DNA of 64,000 nt from Escherichia phage JK1, in the sequence record MZ436830.1; one strand, given 5' to 3'. Positions 2,429-59,724 of this stretch are shown piece after piece (position 1 is the first letter of the stretch; each line of letters begins with the position of its first letter). The position numbers and the translations under genes were made by a program. The notes beneath the pieces were generated by a model. That model was given only the letters and a program-made list of their open reading frames with translations. It was not told the origin of the DNA and made no database searches.

Positions 2429-2458
2429 ATTATACCACATCCTTGTGGTAAAGTAAAC
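2429..2458 (-). promoter_or_regulatory. early promoter (GTTTAC-N18-TGGTATAAT)
   Basis: -35 at 2458..2453, extended -10 at 2434..2429. Confidence 0.6.
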
Positions 2459-4278
2459 TACTGGCTCATCCATTCTTTACGAAGGTCAGCGTTATCTCCC
2501 ATGAGCATTTCAAAAAGCTCTTTCCAGTTCTCAGGAAGTTTAACAACATCATATACTGGGTTTTGAATCATCTCACGATATTCAGATTTTTCCAAAGAGC
2601 CAAGTCCCTTAATATAACGGATGCTATGTTTAGGTAGAGCATCTTTGGCACTCTCATATTCAGCGACTGTATAAAACCATTCTTGTTTTTTACCGACCTG
2701 AGCGATGATTACAGGAGTTTTGACGAAGCGAATTCGTCCTTGCTCAAACAATTCTGGCCAATTACTAAAAAACCCGAGCAGAGAAGGATAAATGCTTCCT
2801 AGACCATCATGGTCAGCATCGGTCATAATAGCAATATTATGATAATTCAAGTTTTCAGCTTTTTCACCAAGAACTAATCCAGTGATTGCGCAAATATCAA
2901 ACAGTTCTTTGTTTTTAAGCATATCAGCATATGACATACCCCAACTGTTGAGAACTTTACCACGCAATGGATAACCACCATGAAGTTCTTTATCACGAAC
3001 ATCAATAAGATATCCGATAGCAGAATCACCCTCAGTCAAGAAAAGAGTAGTATCAGCATCTTTACCACAAAGATTCGCTTTGATATGTTTATGAACCTTA
3101 GCTTTAGAAGCCTTTTTAGCTGCTTTAGTTTCTGCTGCTTTTTCTGCTGCCAATTTACGGGCCAAGGCAGCTTCAATAATCGGCATTAAAATTGCTTCAT
3201 TATTTAGAATAGCGCGTGAAATCTTTTTAGCATCAAGTTGAATATGACTACGAATTTCACCAAAAGGAGAAGTAAGTCGTTCTTTAGTTTGAGAATCAAA
3301 TCGCATGTTTTTCATATCACGGACAAACATAACGATAGTCAAACATTCTTTAACGCGTGCTTTAGTTACATCAATTTTGAACTTACGTTTGATTTGTGGA
3401 ATAAGGTCTTCACAAATATCATCCATAACACAGTCAATGTGATGGCCACCATTCTTAGTGTGAATGTTATTCACATAAGTTAATTGGCGAAATCCATCCG
3501 GTGAACGACCAACCGCAATAGAACAATTTTCTTGTTCTTGAACAATAGCATGTTCATCATACTGTCGTGCATATTTCTTAAAATTGCCCTGAACCTTTTT
3601 ACCATTAAAGGTAAATTGAATATCAGGATAAACAACAGCAAGTGTCTGGAGACGATCTAGTGTAATGTCAAGATAAACTTGGGACAGCTCATTAGTTTCA
3701 AATGACATAAAATCAGGAATGAAAGTAACACGGGTTCCTTTCCATTTTCCTGGAATAGTTTCCCATGATTTATTTTCCATGCCATTTGAACAACGAACTA
3801 CAATATTATTTTGACCATCGCCAGTTTCACCGACAAACATCACAGAAAAAATGTTAGTTAAACTAGAACCAACACCATTCATACCACCGGTGACACGTTC
3901 TTTATCATCACCGAAGTTACCACCCGCTTTTGGAATAGTCCAAGCAGCAACTGGACCAGGAATTTCTTCACCGGTAGGTGTTTTAACCATCGCTTGTGGA
4001 ATACCGCGACCGTTATCTTCAACTGTTACCTGATTATTTTTAATGGTAACATTAATTTTATTCGCGAATTTAAACTTAGTACGAATACCTTCATCGACTG
4101 AGTTATCGATAATTTCATCAATAAGCTTAACAAGACCAGGTACATACTGAACACTTTCCCATTTACCAAACAGAAAGCGCTCATGCATTTCATTAGCAGA
4201 AGAGCCAATATACATGCCGCTACGCTTTTTGATATGTTCAATATCGCTCAGAATTTTAATTTCATTCTTAATCATCAC
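2458..4278 (-). CDS. 39: DNA topoisomerase II large (GyrB-like ATPase) subunit, uninterrupted 606-aa form
   Basis: N-terminal GHKL ATPase motifs (VEDNGRGIP) and TOPRIM-like C-terminal part in one ORF. Confidence 0.9.
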   Translation of the reverse strand: MMIKNEIKILSDIEHIKKRSGMYIGSSANEMHERFLFGKWESVQYVPGLVKLIDEIIDNSVDEGIRTKFKFANKINVTIKNNQVTVEDNGRGIPQAMVKTPTGEEIPGPVAAWTIPKAGGNFGDDKERVTGGMNGVGSSLTNIFSVMFVGETGDGQNNIVVRCSNGMENKSWETIPGKWKGTRVTFIPDFMSFETNELSQVYLDITLDRLQTLAVVYPDIQFTFNGKKVQGNFKKYARQYDEHAIVQEQENCSIAVGRSPDGFRQLTYVNNIHTKNGGHHIDCVMDDICEDLIPQIKRKFKIDVTKARVKECLTIVMFVRDMKNMRFDSQTKERLTSPFGEIRSHIQLDAKKISRAILNNEAILMPIIEAALARKLAAEKAAETKAAKKASKAKVHKHIKANLCGKDADTTLFLTEGDSAIGYLIDVRDKELHGGYPLRGKVLNSWGMSYADMLKNKELFDICAITGLVLGEKAENLNYHNIAIMTDADHDGLGSIYPSLLGFFSNWPELFEQGRIRFVKTPVIIAQVGKKQEWFYTVAEYESAKDALPKHSIRYIKGLGSLEKSEYREMIQNPVYDVVKLPENWKELFEMLMGDNADLRKEWMSQ

Positions 4279-4989: not shown

Positions 4990-5015
4990 CCTTTAAGTAA
5001 ATCGTAAAAACCACC

Positions 5016-5162
5016 ATTCACATGCTTAGGAGCAGAAGGCCGACGAGTAGACAAACGATGACATTTAGGGCAAACATCATTTTCTCGTTCAGAAATCTTT
5101 TTAATTTTTTCATATTCATGCCCGCAATCTTCGGATTGGCATTTATAATCATACATTGGCAT
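5016..5162 (-). CDS. small zinc-ribbon protein (FmdB-like, MPxYxYxCxxCGH...CPxC)
   Basis: 48-codon ORF below the track cutoff; AAGGA SD 5 nt upstream of ATG; two CxxC pairs. Confidence 0.5.
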
Positions 5163-5164
5163 AA

Positions 5165-5584
5165 TTATTCCTTAAAGTGAGCTTTCAACATCTGATACAA
5201 GGACCATGCCTGTTCATTATTTTCAATAGTAACTTTCATGACTGGGAATTCTGTGAAATCTTCTATTTGTTCTTGCTCTTCCTGCTCTTGTTCTTCAGCT
5301 GCTTGGTATGGATTTTCCACTTCATCAAAGAATTCAGCTTCGCTAGTAGAAAGCCAAATAAAATCTTCATCCAAAATATCTTTACCGGAGGATAATGCCA
5401 ATCTTCCAGTAGATGTCACAATTTTAGTAGGACGACCAAGATAGTCAATATCTATAACTTTAAAAGGTTCCATACCTAAACGTCGTGCATAAATTCCGTT
5501 TTCAGTATGGTCTTTAATAAAAGCTTCTTGAGCTTGTTTATTTTTAAATTGATACCATTTATTGACTTCAAATCTAATAGCCAT
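5165..5584 (-). CDS. hypothetical protein with acidic [10 protein letters not shown] tract
   Basis: 139-aa ORF. Confidence 0.5.
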
Positions 5585-5799
5585 TAATAAATTTCCTTCC
5601 AGTAAGTTGTACCGTCTTCAGTGATTTCACGGAATACACCATAAATCGGTTGTTTATCACCAACCTTTTCATACACATAAACCGAAGTCAAGTGAGTAAA
5701 CTTGATGGTGTGTTCCTTTTGAACTACTACCAAATCTGGATCGAATAATACATCTTCAAATTCGTCATTAGTGCAGTTCTGAACAATTTTACGTTTCAT
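5584..5799 (-). CDS. hypothetical protein
   Basis: 71-aa ORF; stop/start overlap with neighbour. Confidence 0.45.
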
Positions 5800-5812
5800 T
5801 ACAATTTCCTCA

Positions 5813-6082
5813 TTAATTGAACAGTGGAGCGATGCGTTTCAGAAGAGTAGCAGCACCTTTGGCAAATTTTACATCATGAAAAACAGTTTCTTCTTCTGTA
5901 ACAACTCGAACTTTAATATTTTCACAATCCCAATTTTTACGAACAATCTTCAAAAGCTGCAGTAAATCTTTACATTCAGCAATATCGATAACACATCCAC
6001 GAGAATCTTCCATTATCGCACGATAACCGTAAGCCATACCATAATCGTTAAAAGATTGCTCGATGATAATTAAGTTTTCCAT
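5813..6082 (-). CDS. hypothetical protein
   Basis: ATG preceded by GGAG; track start is an upstream TTG extension. Confidence 0.5.
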   Translation of the reverse strand: MENLIIIEQSFNDYGMAYGYRAIMEDSRGCVIDIAECKDLLQLLKIVRKNWDCENIKVRVVTEEETVFHDVKFAKGAATLLKRIAPLFN

Positions 6083-6160
6083 TTTATTCTCCAAGTTGTT
6101 TTCTGTATCAGTAGTTGATATTGATATAGTACCATAATCAACTACTGATGTATATAGTTT
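6083..6160 (-). repeat. promoter/5'-UTR cassette, copy A (contains 13-bp perfect inverted repeat)
   Basis: shares ttttattctccaa...gtatcagtagttgata..tatagtacca with 25292-25380 and 51712-51790. Confidence 0.6.
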
Positions 6161-6181
6161 TATGAAAAAAAAATTTAAACT

Positions 6182-6673
6182 TTATGCATAGCGAGCTTTG
6201 CTGTAGTGTTTAATCCAACTTTCAGGAATGACTTTGTATGTTCCTAAAAATACCGTGTTGTACAGCTTAACACCGTCTTCTACCCACTGATCGGTAATGT
6301 ATGCGCACATAGCACGAGTACGGTTAACAACCCCTTCCTCACCTTCAGTAAATTCAAACTCATAAGGAGCAACGAACTTGATAGCTTGACCGAGTTTCCA
6401 CTTAAAATCTACACCTACATGCGAAGTATCAATCGTTTCAATTCCTTTAGCGGGAACAGCTTTCAAAAACGCAGGCTCAAGAAATTTCCATCGAACATAA
6501 CCAAACTGAGGTTTAGACATTCCATCTTTAGGAATGATACGCACTTTTACTTCAGAATCTTCATCTTTAACACCATGTTTAAGCTGAATGCTTACAACTT
6601 CAACCAATTTTCCTGCTGCCTTAGAACGGGATTTATCAGATACACGAGCAATTTCACCGATATTAATATTCAT
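6182..6673 (-). CDS. hypothetical protein (motB region), paralogue of 6747-7250
   Basis: 163-aa ORF; C-terminal ITDQWVEDGV segment shared with next ORF. Confidence 0.5.
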   Translation of the reverse strand: MNINIGEIARVSDKSRSKAAGKLVEVVSIQLKHGVKDEDSEVKVRIIPKDGMSKPQFGYVRWKFLEPAFLKAVPAKGIETIDTSHVGVDFKWKLGQAIKFVAPYEFEFTEGEEGVVNRTRAMCAYITDQWVEDGVKLYNTVFLGTYKVIPESWIKHYSKARYA

Positions 6674-6717
6674 AATTATCTCTCACTTGTTAAAAAGATT
6701 TTATACTCCGCAGGACC

Positions 6718-6747
6718 ATTATACTCTGGTCCCAAGAGTTTGTAAAC
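6718..6747 (-). promoter_or_regulatory. early promoter
   Basis: GTTTAC-N18-TATAAT. Confidence 0.5.
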
Positions 6748-7250
6748 TAGCTTACACGAACATTAATCACTGCGCTACGAGGAACTACGGAGTACTCTCC
6801 AGCATGAACTACATTAAGAAGTTCAACGCCATCTTCAATCCACTGGTCAGTTACCCAACCGCCGACCGGATTCGCGAATGGACGACGAATGTAAACTGCC
6901 TTACACAACAAATCAGTCGGGTCTTCAATTTTTTCAACTGGTGCCACATACATAGAAACTAAATCCATATCAATATGGGATTTTTCCTCTTCTTCTTTTT
7001 CAATTTCTGTCAATAGACTAAAATCTTTTTCATAAATAATAAGCGATGACACCATTCCATAATAGTTTCTAATTTCAATATACATCATGCCGATAAGAAT
7101 TCCGCTATTAACACTAATAACAGTAAAAGGATATCCGCCAGTTAAAGCAAGAAGTTCACAAAACTTATTATGAGATGTATTAGACAGTACCGGAAAATTC
7201 TTAATTTCATCAAATTTTTTCAATTGATAAACAGCATTATTTTTAATCAT
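6747..7250 (-). CDS. hypothetical protein, paralogue of 6182-6673
   Basis: 167-aa ORF; C-terminal VTDQWIEDGV segment. Confidence 0.5.
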   Translation of the reverse strand: MIKNNAVYQLKKFDEIKNFPVLSNTSHNKFCELLALTGGYPFTVISVNSGILIGMMYIEIRNYYGMVSSLIIYEKDFSLLTEIEKEEEEKSHIDMDLVSMYVAPVEKIEDPTDLLCKAVYIRRPFANPVGGWVTDQWIEDGVELLNVVHAGEYSVVPRSAVINVRVS

Positions 7251-7260
7251 AATTTTCTCT

Positions 7261-7812
7261 TTAATCTAAGGTAATAAAGCCTTTTAATTCGGCATGCGAT
7301 TTGCGGAACATTACTTGATGTCCGCCAATGATAACTTGGTCATCTGGCACTTCATAAATCGCAATGTACATTCCACGTTCTTTTAAGTCTTCACGCTCTT
7401 CTCGAGTGAACCATCTCATCATATCATATTCGCTAGCGAAAGCAAAATGATATAATGCAATAAACCACAATGGAATATAATTTTCAATTCGTGAATAATC
7501 TTTATTCCATTTAGTTTTAATAACATCATTAGCATTTTCAACTAATAACTTATCATCGTGTGGAATAGGAATACTTTCATGGCTTTCATAATTATCGCTA
7601 TGATGATGAAATGACGATGAATTAATACCGCAAAATTTTAGCCAAGTTCGAGTTTTCATAGAATCAAATCCACGATAAGGAGTTGATTGAACGCATAACT
7701 CTTGCCTAATTTTGACTATACCACTATCATCATTTAATGCGCTAAACGATGATTCAACACGATAAATTTTCATTTTATTATCCTCAGTAGCTATGGTGTT
7801 ATAATACCACAA
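7261..7812 (-). CDS. hypothetical protein
   Basis: 183-aa ORF downstream of an early promoter. Confidence 0.5.
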   Translation of the reverse strand: MWYYNTIATEDNKMKIYRVESSFSALNDDSGIVKIRQELCVQSTPYRGFDSMKTRTWLKFCGINSSSFHHHSDNYESHESIPIPHDDKLLVENANDVIKTKWNKDYSRIENYIPLWFIALYHFAFASEYDMMRWFTREEREDLKERGMYIAIYEVPDDQVIIGGHQVMFRKSHAELKGFITLD

Positions 7813-7830
7813 CTAACCGAGGAAGTAAAC
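7801..7830 (-). promoter_or_regulatory. early promoter
   Basis: GTTTAC-N18-TATTAT with upstream TGG. Confidence 0.45.
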
Positions 7831-7836
7831 AACTTT

Positions 7837-8520
7837 TTATCGTTTTGTTGGAAGAGACAGAGGATCGCAATCTTCCTCTGACGGAGCATCTTCAAGACCC
7901 ATAGCGTATCGCAAAGCATACTTCATCATCAGGATGTCTTTCGCACAGTCATGAATAGAATCATGTGCAACGAATCCATCTAAAGTTCCCTTTGGAAGAG
8001 GACACGTGGTCATATCACGAACAAGCAGAAGTGCTTCAATTCTGGTACGAATATCACGCTGATTCCAGAATTTACATGGTTCTAACTTAAATGTATCAAG
8101 CTCATTCTCGGAAACGCCATTAAGACGTTGAATATCGCGAATGAGATCGACTAAAATTGGAAAATCAAACGACATTCCACGGCACCAGCCTTGAGATTTC
8201 CAAGGATCGATATTATGTGCATTGATGTAATCGTTGAATTTTGCAATACCATCAATGGTGCTTACATCTTCATCGGATGGTGCAATATTTTTTCGAGCTT
8301 CAGGAGACTGATTTTTCCACCATTCGATAGTGCTTTTAGTAAAAAGACGATGTCCTTTTTGGCTTTTTAAATCAAATTTGATTTTAATGCCACGTGAAAC
8401 TAGTTCATCGAATGATTCAACTACTTCTGGGTTAGGGTCAAAAGCAATTACAGCCAAATCAATAACAGCTGCTTTTTCACCGCTTCCCATTGTTTCAAAA
8501 TCTATAATAAAATCAAACAT
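7837..8520 (-). CDS. dexA: exonuclease A (DnaQ-like 3'-5' exonuclease)
   Basis: 227 aa; N-terminal FDFETMG exonuclease motif. Confidence 0.8.
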   Translation of the reverse strand: MFDFIIDFETMGSGEKAAVIDLAVIAFDPNPEVVESFDELVSRGIKIKFDLKSQKGHRLFTKSTIEWWKNQSPEARKNIAPSDEDVSTIDGIAKFNDYINAHNIDPWKSQGWCRGMSFDFPILVDLIRDIQRLNGVSENELDTFKLEPCKFWNQRDIRTRIEALLLVRDMTTCPLPKGTLDGFVAHDSIHDCAKDILMMKYALRYAMGLEDAPSEEDCDPLSLPTKR

Positions 8521-15098: not shown

Positions 15099-15128
15099 AT
15101 TATACCATACTCATTTTGGAAAGTAAAC
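15099..15128 (-). promoter_or_regulatory. early promoter
   Basis: GTTTAC-N18-TGGTATAAT. Confidence 0.55.
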
Positions 15129-19615: not shown

Positions 19616-19645
19616 ACTATACCATAGTCTCGTCAGCTTGTAAAC
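19616..19645 (-). promoter_or_regulatory. early promoter upstream of dmd
   Basis: GTTTAC-N18-TGGTATAGT. Confidence 0.55.
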
Positions 19646-25054: not shown

Positions 25055-25291
25055 TCAAATGCAAGTAGTAATTACTCCAGTAGTGCTTATGCAGGTATTA
25101 CCCATTTGCACACCTAAAGATCCATTTGTATTCACATGAAGATTATCATCAATTTTAACTGATATTTTACCATTAGTGTGAATAACGGTGCTAGATTCAA
25201 TCACAGGTTGAGTATCATTTTCAACACTAACAAATGGAACTGCTGCTAATGCAACTAAACAAACTGCTAAGCATCCCATAACAATTTTCAT
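25055..25291 (-). CDS. small secreted protein
   Basis: signal peptide; ATG with GGAG SD (track start is TTG extension). Confidence 0.5.
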   Translation of the reverse strand: MKIVMGCLAVCLVALAAVPFVSVENDTQPVIESSTVIHTNGKISVKIDDNLHVNTNGSLGVQMGNTCISTTGVITTCI

Positions 25292-25380
25292 TTTATTCTC
25301 CAAATCTGTATCAGTAGTTGATAGTTGTATAGTACCATGGAAGAACAGTCTTGTAAACAGTTTTGTGAAAATTTTTTAGG
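25292..25380 (-). repeat. promoter/5'-UTR cassette, copy B
   Basis: near-identical to copy C apart from a 14-bp variable core; includes GTTTAC and TACTAT. Confidence 0.6.
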
Positions 25381-29433: not shown

Positions 29434-30408
29434 TCACTTCCACTGCATTTCGCATGCTAATTGAATGAAAAGATAAGCTAAATGCAATTCAGTATTAGCT
29501 GCAATACCATGATACTGATTATTTTCGCCGACAATTTCGTACATACGAATAATACTCTGTGGAGTTACACGTGAATAGATTTCTTCGGCAAGTTTACCTA
29601 CGAACCACGAATAATCAGCTGCATATTTTGGTGCTAAAGCTCTGAGTTGTTTAACATCTTTATTTTTGAGAGACTCAAGAACATCATCAATAGCACCACG
29701 ATCGTTAGTAACCAGTGATAAAATACCAGCATCCAAAACACCTTTAGATGAATAACTATCGAGCTCGCCAATAGTTTTACGAAAATCAGGAAAATTCTTT
29801 TTAACCAAAGCTGCTACAACTTTCATATCAGCTATAGCAATTCCTTCATGCTTACAGATTTCGGTCAACCGACGAATCATCTGCTTCATCATTTCAATTT
29901 TATCTTCATCGGTCGGTTGACCGAATGTGATAACTCGACAGCGTGACTGAAGCGGTTTAATAATACCATCAATATTGTTAGCAGTAATAATAATACTGCA
30001 GTTTGAACTATAAGCTTCCATAAAGGAACGAAGATGTCGCTGAGATTCTGCTAAACCTGAACGGTCAAATTCATCAATAACAATTACCTTTTGACGACCA
30101 TCAAATGAAGCTGCACTCGCAAAATTAGTTAAAGGACCACGAACGAAATCAATTTTACAGTCTGATCCATTTACAAACATCATATCAGCATTTACATCAT
30201 GACACAATGCTTTTGCTACAGTTGTTTTACCTGTTCCTGGAGAAGGAGAATGAAGAATAATATGTGGAATCTTACCTTTACTTGTAATAGATTTAAAGGT
30301 TTCTTTATCAAAGGCGGGAAGAATACATTCATCGATAGTAGATGGACGATATTTCTGTTCAAGAATGTGTTCTTTTTCATTTACGGTAATCATAATTTCC
30401 TCATTCAA
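29434..30408 (-). CDS. 44: clamp loader large subunit (AAA+)
   Basis: Walker A SPGTGKTT, Walker B VIVIDEFD. Confidence 0.9.
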
Positions 30409-50742: not shown

Positions 50743-51711
50743 TTATTTCAGAAGAGTAACCTCAGCGATTTCTTCCCAACCGTTTTTGTCGGTCATAATA
50801 AAGTCAGCAAGATAAAGAGCAGTACGCAGTGAAACATTACGTAAACGATTAACATTGACTTTCATCCATGATAATGCTTTATAAGTTTCTTCATCAGAAA
50901 GACCGCGCTTTTGCATCATGTCAGTTGAAAGAATAACATCTTCAACCCTGACCATAATTTCTTCATTAGTGTGAACACCCAAATCCAAATAAACTGAGCG
51001 GGACACTAATGCTTGTAAATGTGGAGCAAGTTTAGTACCACGGTCTAATTCGCGGTCAATGTCAACGTTTGTGATAAAAACAATCGTTCCTTTAAATTCA
51101 AACTCACGCTCAATGCCTTTTTCTTCTAAGTAAGAAGATGCAGTGCTCCAGCAGACTTTACGGGTCTCTCCAGTGTCCAGAGCAGCTTTTAGAAGATTAA
51201 GAATGTCCATATCAGAGAAAACATCCACATCATCAATCAAAAGGACAGAATTCTCTTCACGATTATTCCAAAGCTGTTCATAAAGACCGATACCGGAGAT
51301 TTTACCGTTAATGCTTTTATATTCAATGTATCCAATATCATTTGCTTTATTTAAAGCTTTATCTAAAGAATACGTTTTACCAATACCTGCCGCACCAGAG
51401 ATAATTAATGAACGAATGTTTCCGTTAATAATACCATTCGTCATCATTCCCATAACATTAAATCTTTTATTAATGCGGGTTTTCATATCTTCATACGATT
51501 CTTTAACTTCTTCAACTTTTACACCATCATATGAAATGTCTGATTTGTAAACCCAAACACCGCGACGTTTACCGTCAATTTCAACAAAAACTTTACCATC
51601 TCCTTGTGCATCTACCGGAGCATTATCTGGGAACCATTCGCCTAAGAGCTCAAAAGTTCCAGAGATTTCTTTACCGAAGTAGATACCCTTATTGATAGTT
51701 ACAGTTTTCAT
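50743..51711 (-). CDS. AAA+/P-loop ATPase
   Basis: Walker A GAAGIGKTYS, Walker B VLLIDDVD. Confidence 0.6.
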   Translation of the reverse strand: MKTVTINKGIYFGKEISGTFELLGEWFPDNAPVDAQGDGKVFVEIDGKRRGVWVYKSDISYDGVKVEEVKESYEDMKTRINKRFNVMGMMTNGIINGNIRSLIISGAAGIGKTYSLDKALNKANDIGYIEYKSINGKISGIGLYEQLWNNREENSVLLIDDVDVFSDMDILNLLKAALDTGETRKVCWSTASSYLEEKGIEREFEFKGTIVFITNVDIDRELDRGTKLAPHLQALVSRSVYLDLGVHTNEEIMVRVEDVILSTDMMQKRGLSDEETYKALSWMKVNVNRLRNVSLRTALYLADFIMTDKNGWEEIAEVTLLK

Positions 51712-51790
51712 TTTATTCTCCAAATCCGTATCAGTTGATAGTTGTATAGTACCATAAAGCTTTATGCTTGTAAACAGTTTTGTGAAAAAT
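51712..51790 (-). repeat. promoter/5'-UTR cassette, copy C
   Basis: near-identical to copy B. Confidence 0.6.
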
Positions 51791-59694: not shown

Positions 59695-59724
59695 ATTATA
59701 CCACAGTCAAGAGGAAAAGTAAAC
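59695..59724 (-). promoter_or_regulatory. early promoter upstream of regB
   Basis: GTTTAC-N18-TGGTATAAT. Confidence 0.55.

Follow-up and report, generated by a model that had tools for sequence, protein, structure and literature searches.

Why should an early promoter of a T4-like phage carry a perfect inverted repeat wrapped around its -10 element? The question is raised by a short intergenic space in Escherichia phage JK1 (MZ436830.1), a Tequatrovirus whose first 64 kb form the window, that is, the whole 64,000-nucleotide stretch of DNA analysed here. The answer that we favour is that the repeat is the stem of a known type of promoter and stem-loop cassette, and that the RNA hairpin marks the end of the transcript coming from upstream. 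The evidence comes from the fold of the repeat, from its relatives in other genera, and from the distribution of similar hairpins and of terminators within the window.

The inverted repeat between motB and ORF89

The genes around the repeat lie on the minus strand. Along the direction of transcription, the order is motB, a 99-nt spacer that holds the inverted repeat, an ORF of 89 amino acids (ORF89), cef and goF (Table 1). The neighbourhood is widespread: motB was found by tblastn in 735 phage records, and a megablast search with 5000-8000 matched 681 phage records, nearly all of them Tequatrovirus, at 94-98% identity. In phage wV7, the 141 bases surrounding the inverted repeat are 100% identical. 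ORF89 is intact in the window phage, wV7, NR1, RB9 and others. T4, PST and several IMG/VR contigs have lost an internal part of it, and a short frame-shifted remnant stays (at about 1984-2070 of the T4 locus L001). With this deletion, as in T4, PST and others, the promoter lies directly before cef; in T4, 11 codons of the ORF are left. A search for ORF89 relatives in IMG/VR found a single locus. Further downstream, the topoisomerase large subunit is encoded by one 606-aa ORF (2458-4278, minus strand), which in T4 is split into genes 39 and 60.

Table 1. Features of the motB-cef locus, and other early-promoter-like sites of the window with a hairpin around the -10 (sites are given by the first -10 base; energies in kcal/mol)
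Feature	Position	Strand	Basis or remark
motB, 163 aa, upstream gene	6182-6673	-	ORF list; MotB annotation in relatives; its read-through RNA would hold both arms
A/T-rich, UP-element-like tract with T-run	6155-6181	-	92% A+T in the 25 nt upstream of the -35
-35 hexamer TATACA (predicted)	6149-6154	-	17-nt spacing to TACTAT; last base is the first base of the 5' arm
5' arm (ATCAGTAGTTGAT on the minus strand), promoter positions -30 to -18	6137-6149	-	Sequence; repeat search
'17-nt loop' with extended -10 TGg-TACTAT (TG 6134-6133, hexamer 6131-6126)	6120-6136	-	Folds
Inner 5-bp stem around CUA triloop (6129-6127)	6134-6130 with 6126-6122	-	Folds
3' arm (ATCAACTACTGAT), +1 to +13 of the promoter's own transcript if the start is A6119	6107-6119	-	
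Leader with Shine-Dalgarno GGAG (6092-6089), unstructured	6083-6106	-	Sequence
ORF89, 89 aa, phrog_3720, function unknown; first gene behind the promoter	5813-6082	-	ORF list; relatives
cef, downstream gene of the ORF89-cef-goF early unit	5584-5799	-	ORF list; relatives' annotation
goF, downstream gene of the ORF89-cef-goF early unit	5165-5584	-	ORF list; relatives' annotation
motB's own promoter	6723	-	Strong -10-enclosing hairpin, sense -16.8, antisense -13.2
Early-promoter-like site	15099	-	Weak hairpin, sense -11.2, antisense -3.9; Shine-Dalgarno within 3' arm
Early-promoter-like site	19621	-	Strong -10-enclosing hairpin, sense -18.6, antisense -5.9
Early-promoter-like site	54695	-	Strong -10-enclosing hairpin, sense -21.6, antisense -8.9
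Early-promoter-like site	59700	-	Strong -10-enclosing hairpin, sense -23.1, antisense -13.0; Shine-Dalgarno within 3' arm
Early-promoter-like site	62795	-	Strong -10-enclosing hairpin, sense -23.5, antisense -11.7; Shine-Dalgarno within 3' arm

On the plus strand, ATCAGTAGTTGAT at 6107-6119 is followed, after 17 nt, by its exact reverse complement ATCAACTACTGAT at 6137-6149; the transcribed minus strand of the interval reads TATGGTACTATATCAAT and contains TGGTACTAT. The sequence thereby confirms the perfect 13-bp repeat with an enclosed -10 that the first-pass annotation had described. The actual repeat is longer, since its symmetry extends to 20-nt arms (6107-6126 and 6130-6149) that are 85% complementary and only 3 nt apart. 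As RNA, the transcribed strand folds into an outer stem of 13 bp and, beyond a 2x2 internal loop, an inner stem of 5 bp (one G.U) capped by a CUA triloop, a total of 18 pairs whose centre of symmetry falls at promoter position -9.

For a dinucleotide-shuffled window, the expected number of perfect 13-bp inverted repeats with loops of 3-60 nt is 0.14, and 9% of the 300 shuffles contained one or more. The 66-nt segment around the promoter has a folding energy of -20.2 kcal/mol (z = -7.6 against mononucleotide shuffles). A 111-nt segment of read-through RNA reaches -25.5 kcal/mol (z = -5.1), which none of 200 dinucleotide-preserving shuffles equalled. The inverted repeat at 6107-6149 is thus confirmed as real and above chance. 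A scan of 5700-6800 with the Rfam 15 covariance models returned only a chance-level match elsewhere in the region (E = 0.88). The sole other perfect inverted repeat of at least 13 bp in the window (29860-29873 with 29912-29925; 14 bp, 38-nt spacer) sits inside a 324-aa ORF (29434-30408, minus strand) and is probably a coding coincidence.

The minus-strand layout, TTTAAATTTTTTTTTCATAAAAC TATACA tcagtagttgattaTGg TACTAT atcaat ATCAACTACTGAT acagaaaacaactt GGAG aataaa ATG, predicts a sigma-70 promoter of the T4 early type, with an A/T tract, TATACA, a 17-nt spacer and the extended -10 TGgTACTAT. In the paralogous T4 motA promoter (record Z48569), TACTAT is annotated as minus_10_signal, and GTTTACA, at the place of TATACA here, as minus_35_signal; the orthologous site in Dhakavirus also has TATACA. 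The T-run in the A/T tract varies from 5 to 9 T among relatives. Transcription would start at A6119, 7 nt past the -10. Before the start codon of ORF89 (ATG, 6082-6080), GGAGAATAAAA (6092-6082) is a putative RegB site, as it matches exactly the strong cleavage consensus GG*AGRAYARAA (PMC3014915 section 8). The Shine-Dalgarno region of the gene behind another copy of the cassette (copy B; region 25291-25301) also reads GGAGAATAAAA and matches the RegB consensus exactly.

This layout separates two kinds of RNA. Because the 5' arm lies at -30 to -18, before +1, the promoter's own transcript cannot form the hairpin; because only RNA read through from motB has both arms, only that RNA can fold. The predicted transcript from its own start has a folding energy of -3.7 kcal/mol (z = -0.05) and no hairpin. 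The earlier suggestion of a structured leader, for which RNA folding had been proposed as the check, therefore holds for the read-through RNA and fails for the promoter's own transcript. The hairpin begins 33 nt past the motB stop codon. Its helix ends at 6107, which leaves the Shine-Dalgarno sequence, starting at 6092, 14 nt outside.

Cassette copies and relatives

The -10, leader and Shine-Dalgarno sequence are repeated in the window at 25285-25371 and 51705-51789 (71-77% identity), and the cassette is also found at the T4 motA promoter, where the common -10 and leader sequence is TGGTACTATACAACTATCAACTACTGATACAGAA, and at another gene in related genomes. The 3' arm is exact in the 25285-25371 copy (at 25310-25322) and in the motA promoter, and shortened in the 51705-51789 copy. 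Apart from copy A itself, the exact arm sequence turned up only in paralogous promoter leaders: once more in the window, at the T4 motA promoter and in a third cassette of related loci. In all three, the -35/-10 spacer is unrelated (e.g. AGACTGTTCTTCCATGG) and the 5' arm is absent, which agrees with the earlier remark that only the copy at 6107-6149 (copy A) has the second arm. In the other copies, the -35 is GTTTACA and the discriminator ACAACT; the spacer TCAGTAGTTGATTATGG and the discriminator ATCAAT are found in copy A alone, and both differences add pairs to the hairpin. Of the two arms, the one in the leader is ancestral and the one in the spacer derived. A pattern scan of IMG/VR DNA returned 24 loci, about half of which are unrelated coding matches. 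One of the copies has a palindrome of its own (copy C, 51743-51776), formed by pairing between the -35 and -10 regions (TGTTTACAAGCATAAAGCT / AGCTTTATGGTACTATACA, 79%), a 'stem-loop between -35 and -10' arrangement.

Within Tequatrovirus, the repeat hardly varies. Its 43 bases are identical in T4 (AF158101 6582-6624), T2 and about 370 phage records; over the 65 bases 6096-6160, identity is 100% in 370 records and 95-99% in 126. Absence from close relatives, which the first-pass annotation named, together with unchanged expression, as a refutation, was looked for among these phages and did not turn up. Nonetheless, the surrounding region is 95-100% identical across the genus, and since all of it is conserved to the same degree, conservation at this level carries little weight for the hairpin.

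Sampled variants change mostly in the leader outside the repeat (ACAGAAAACAAC to ATAGAAAATAAT) and in the length of the T-run. Two rare variants touch the repeat. In SA21RB, an A to G change in the 5' arm gives a G.U pair in the sense RNA and C.A on the other strand; in ECO07P2, the canonical ACAACT is regained and only the inner stem is lost. As far as sequence can tell, each is either compatible with RNA pairing or leaves the main stem intact. The SA21RB record (OL960580) labels this exact site 'rho-independent terminator (WebGeSTer)', a prediction. The leader at 6093-6106 (minus strand) occurs as two haplotypes, ACAGAAAACAAC and ATAGAAAATAAT, which differ by three C-to-T changes that go together while the 43-nt repeat is unchanged. 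Among the sampled loci, the T haplotype is found only in ORF89-deleted genomes; T4, also deleted, has the C haplotype.

Because variation inside Tequatrovirus is too low for covariation, the comparison was moved to other Tevenvirinae genera, from which the region upstream of cef, or after motB, was fetched. This comparison of orthologous regions, which the first-pass annotation had called for, gave a hairpin upstream of cef in nine other genera, at or around the -10 wherever a promoter can be recognised, with different stems and compensatory changes. The promoter is recognisable in most genera (TTTACA, TGTACA or TATACA; 17 nt; TACTAT, TATTAT or TATAGT), and in most the symmetry centre falls between -14 and -9, that is, on the -10. 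The stems are TAGGGTA / TACCCTA in Dhakavirus, GGTCTAT / ATAGACC in Mosigvirus, GGTGTAGG / CCTACACC in Kanagawavirus, GGTAGGAGCAT / ATGTTCCTACC in Klebsiella phage kv_tblp2, TTGGTGTAGGAG / ACTCCTACACCAA in Winklervirus, GGGCTAT / ATAGCCC in Karamvirus and TGTAGT / GCTACA in Roskildevirus. In Jiaodavirus JD18, the hairpin lies within the -35/-10 spacer instead.

Covariation was scored in a gap-free alignment of five phages with a common register. Paired cells made up 77% of this alignment, compared with 31-43% in slid registers, and both sides had changed in 5 of the 13 pairs. The covariation score of 0.30 (0.04-0.14 for slid registers) was equalled by 1 of 500 shuffles. That pairing is kept while the stems change argues for a nucleic-acid structure over a protein operator or chance. 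Gaprivervirus (VR25, SP18, TH40) and the closely similar Yersinia phage P8 have a GATAGGG-loop-CCCTATC hairpin in the same place, with a loop of just TTT, TTTT or TAATTTT and no recognisable -10. A hairpin that persists in Gaprivervirus without a recognisable -10 implies a role independent of the promoter.

A separate arrangement occurs in Mosigvirus, after a second motB-like gene (L038 1796-1895, L043 2385-2475 and L044 2367-2457). There, a hairpin of 12-14 bp (-26 to -28 kcal/mol) encloses an early promoter, GTTTACT-16/17-TATTAT, and the 3' arm of this hairpin is the Shine-Dalgarno sequence (CCAGAGGAGAA). By its sequence, this hairpin is a clear early-promoter analogue of ribosome-binding-site sequestration of the gene e type.

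Terminators, PeSLs and a proposed role

To place copy A among its neighbours, 66 nt were folded around each of 14 early-promoter-like sites in the window (Table 1). The sense strand folds better than the antisense strand by about 10-13 kcal/mol at 19621, 54695, 59700 and 62795, and by about 7 at 15099. G.U pairs account for this excess, which suggests that it is the sense RNA that folds. At copy A, the two values are close (sense -20.2, antisense -18.0 kcal/mol), so that RNA and DNA action are inseparable from this locus alone.

Hairpins and terminators are distributed differently among these promoters. A canonical upstream terminator is present at none of the six strong-hairpin promoters (6131, 6723, 19621, 54695, 59700, 62795) and at four of seven others (25334, 39634, 51751, 15099), where a G+C-rich stem with a T-run lies 19-87 nt upstream of the -35 (one-sided Fisher p = 0.049, n = 13). 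The nested hairpin thus appears to occur where a terminator is missing. It shares with the intrinsic terminators at other window promoters a stable hairpin directly after the gene, in the equivalent place, but has neither their G+C-rich stem nor their U-run. A canonical intrinsic terminator was rejected for copy A: a consensus terminator scan gives no call for its hairpin, the stem is followed by ACAGAAAACAAC with no U-tract, and G-C pairs make up only 4 of the 13 outer pairs.

Cassettes that combine an early promoter with a stem-loop have a precedent. 'Promoter-early stem-loop' elements, or PeSLs, were defined in RB49 and phi1 (Arbiol et al. 2010, PMC2839356) and later extended to PST and T4 (Comeau et al. 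2014, PMC4122927). In RB49 and phi1, the stem-loops often lie between the -35 and -10 or overlap the -10, the elements are repeated in the genome with flanking ORFs gained or lost, and one stem-loop lowered downstream lacZ about as much as rrnB T1 did (PMC2839356). For PST and T4, the promoter consensus is TTTACW-N17-TAYWAT (PMC4122927).

The copy A element resembles a PeSL in its composite intergenic build of A/T tract, sigma-70-like early promoter, stem-loop, Shine-Dalgarno sequence and start codon. At the sequence level, TATACA fits the promoter consensus at 5 of 6 positions and is followed after 17 nt by TACTAT, which agrees with TAYWAT and has TGg before it. The 25 nt upstream of the -35 have the A+T content of an A/T tract, the 18-pair hairpin encloses the -10, and GGAG and ATG complete the cassette between motB and ORF89. 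The paralogous copies, the ORF89 deletions and flanks that differ among records correspond to a repeated cassette with variable ORFs. Two differences should be kept in view. The PST and T4 stem-loops lie just upstream of the promoter and have an AGNA-loop-TCNT stem (PMC4122927), whereas copy A has an A/T-rich stem of 13+5 bp around the -10. Activity as a terminator and in mini-circle formation was demonstrated for the RB49 and phi1 elements only, while copy A is known from sequence. The PST GenBank record carries no PeSL features. PeSL-type cassettes in T4-type phages are already known, and by its sequence the motB-cef element is one of them and not new in kind.

Our main reading, to which we give a probability of roughly 0.55, is that the repeat is the stem of such a PeSL-type promoter and stem-loop cassette, and that its hairpin would mark or insulate the end of the upstream transcript. 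The early promoter for the ORF89-cef-goF unit would be built inside the hairpin, with one arm in the -35/-10 spacer and the other in the first 13 transcribed bases, the two stretches of a promoter that are least constrained. The hairpin would enclose the -10 because an intergenic space of roughly 100 bp leaves no unconstrained sequence other than the spacer and the initial transcribed region; the same reason fits the short-looped hairpin in the lineage without the promoter, Gaprivervirus. On motB read-through RNA, the hairpin may take the place of a canonical terminator as end-marker of the upstream unit. It could do so by attenuating or pausing transcription and/or as a 3' barrier that protects cleaved motB mRNA, possibly together with RegB cleavage 14 nt downstream of the hairpin. 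The nested promoter would then be the main determinant of ORF89, cef and goF expression, which would be decoupled from upstream transcription. In addition, being repeated in the genome, the cassette may offer homology for gene shuffling; some relatives have the ORF behind it and others have it deleted. Among the papers searched for T4 transcript ends at this locus, nothing usable was found.

Other readings and wider meaning

A rather improbable alternative is that the hairpin discriminates between RNA isoforms, as in T4 genes e, soc, 49 and I-TevI, so that read-through and promoter-proximal RNAs differ in translation or RegB sensitivity. In the read-through RNA, the hairpin would bring an upstream U-run to the Shine-Dalgarno sequence and AUG and sequester them, while RNA from the nested promoter stays open. 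This mechanism is documented for late promoters nested in the 5' arm of a hairpin (PMC3014915 section 29), and the two cases agree in that a promoter sits in the 5' half of a hairpin, and long RNAs fold while RNAs from the internal promoter do not (PMC3014915). The Shine-Dalgarno sequence of copy A has an unpaired probability of 0.05-0.06 in the read-through RNA compared with 0.29 from its own start (partition function). It is part of the exact RegB consensus, and structure protects against RegB (PMC3014915). At 59700, 62795 and 15099, as well as in the Mosigvirus phages phiC120, a20 and PhAPEC2, the 3' arm covers the Shine-Dalgarno sequence.

However, the T4 examples are late (or middle) promoters with the Shine-Dalgarno sequence and AUG in the helix, whereas copy A has a sigma-70 early promoter and its main hairpin ends 14 nt before the Shine-Dalgarno sequence; of the two hallmarks of the sequestering type, copy A has only the transcript that lacks the 5' arm, given the inferred start. 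The hairpins of most other genera, too, end before the Shine-Dalgarno sequence. The predicted pairing relies on a U-run whose length differs between relatives (5-9), and with a 13x13 interior loop to span it contributes only about 5 kcal/mol. Isoform discrimination is ranked second because this pairing is weak and the U-run is variable in length.

Alternatively, the element could act as DNA. A palindrome centred on the -10 might extrude as a cruciform or single-strand hairpin and modulate promoter opening with supercoiling, or serve as a recombination hot spot for cassette shuffling, as in PeSL mini-circles. Horwitz and Loeb reportedly engineered a cruciform-regulated E. coli promoter in 1988, and such promoters share with copy A a palindrome centred on the -10. 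The symmetry centre lies on the -10 in most genera, the arms of copy A are perfect Watson-Crick complements and equally good on both strands, and relatives differ in whether they have, lack or have replaced the ORF behind the element. We nevertheless consider action as DNA unlikely. Unlike the cruciform-regulated promoters, the sister hairpins are strongly strand-asymmetric through G.U pairs, which a two-strand cruciform does not tolerate, and the SA21RB change likewise keeps pairing (G.U) in the sense RNA and breaks it (C.A) on the other strand. The Gaprivervirus hairpin persists without a recognisable promoter, and the centring on the -10 is explained by the spacer and initial transcribed region being the only free sequence.

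Could the repeat instead be a neutral by-product? A single templated mutation (quasi-palindrome or strand-switch) may have copied the leader, inverted, into the spacer and then been inherited. Indeed, the spacer departs from the canonical cassette at 9 of its 17 positions simultaneously, and every one of these changes creates complementarity; the Tequatrovirus copies look like a single origin; and the identity of the surrounding region is equally high. What makes this account quite improbable is the presence of independent hairpins with different stems and compensatory changes at the same place in nine other genera. The discriminator has also changed (ACAACT to ATCAAT), adding five pairs, and a templated origin is in any case compatible with later function.

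The protein-binding operator put forward in the first-pass annotation would have a dimeric phage or host protein repress the promoter from two 13-bp half-sites, 30 bp centre to centre. The dyad symmetry over -30 to +13 is perfect, the shut-off of T4 early promoters is incompletely understood (PMC3014915), and MotB, encoded just upstream, binds DNA (PMC6070864). Yet the arm sequences change completely in the nine other genera while the pairing persists, and both arms occur in only one of at least four cassette copies. The window holds no second dyad of the ATCAGTAGTTGAT/ATCAACTACTGAT type, only one further exact copy of a single arm. Knock-down of MotB left early RNA levels unchanged, and no sequence-specific site was reported (PMC6070864). 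An operator is thus very improbable. A role as replication origin was set aside, as nothing in the data pointed that way.

The PeSL-type reading explains a palindrome that is present in T4 itself without a new regulator, as part of a cassette type that organises and shuffles the early genes of T4-type phages. For annotators, it is also a warning against labelling such palindromes as operators or as ordinary terminators. The covariation across genera and the alternation of hairpins with terminators lead to testable predictions for mapping the ends of T4 early RNAs.

A broader generalisation is more tentative, and we regard it as possible but doubtful: that sigma-70 early promoters inside RNA hairpins are a general, selected design of the Tevenvirinae, used at about half of the window's early promoters and, in at least eight genera, at the cef promoter. 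Each such gene would in that case yield two structurally different mRNA isoforms, one read through from upstream and folded, the other promoter-proximal and open, with the hairpin replacing a terminator. The principle known from the late promoters of genes e, soc and 49 would then extend to the early programme. Ultimately, it would provide a handle on how T4 decouples its densely nested early units, possibly through differential sensitivity to RegB or exonucleases.
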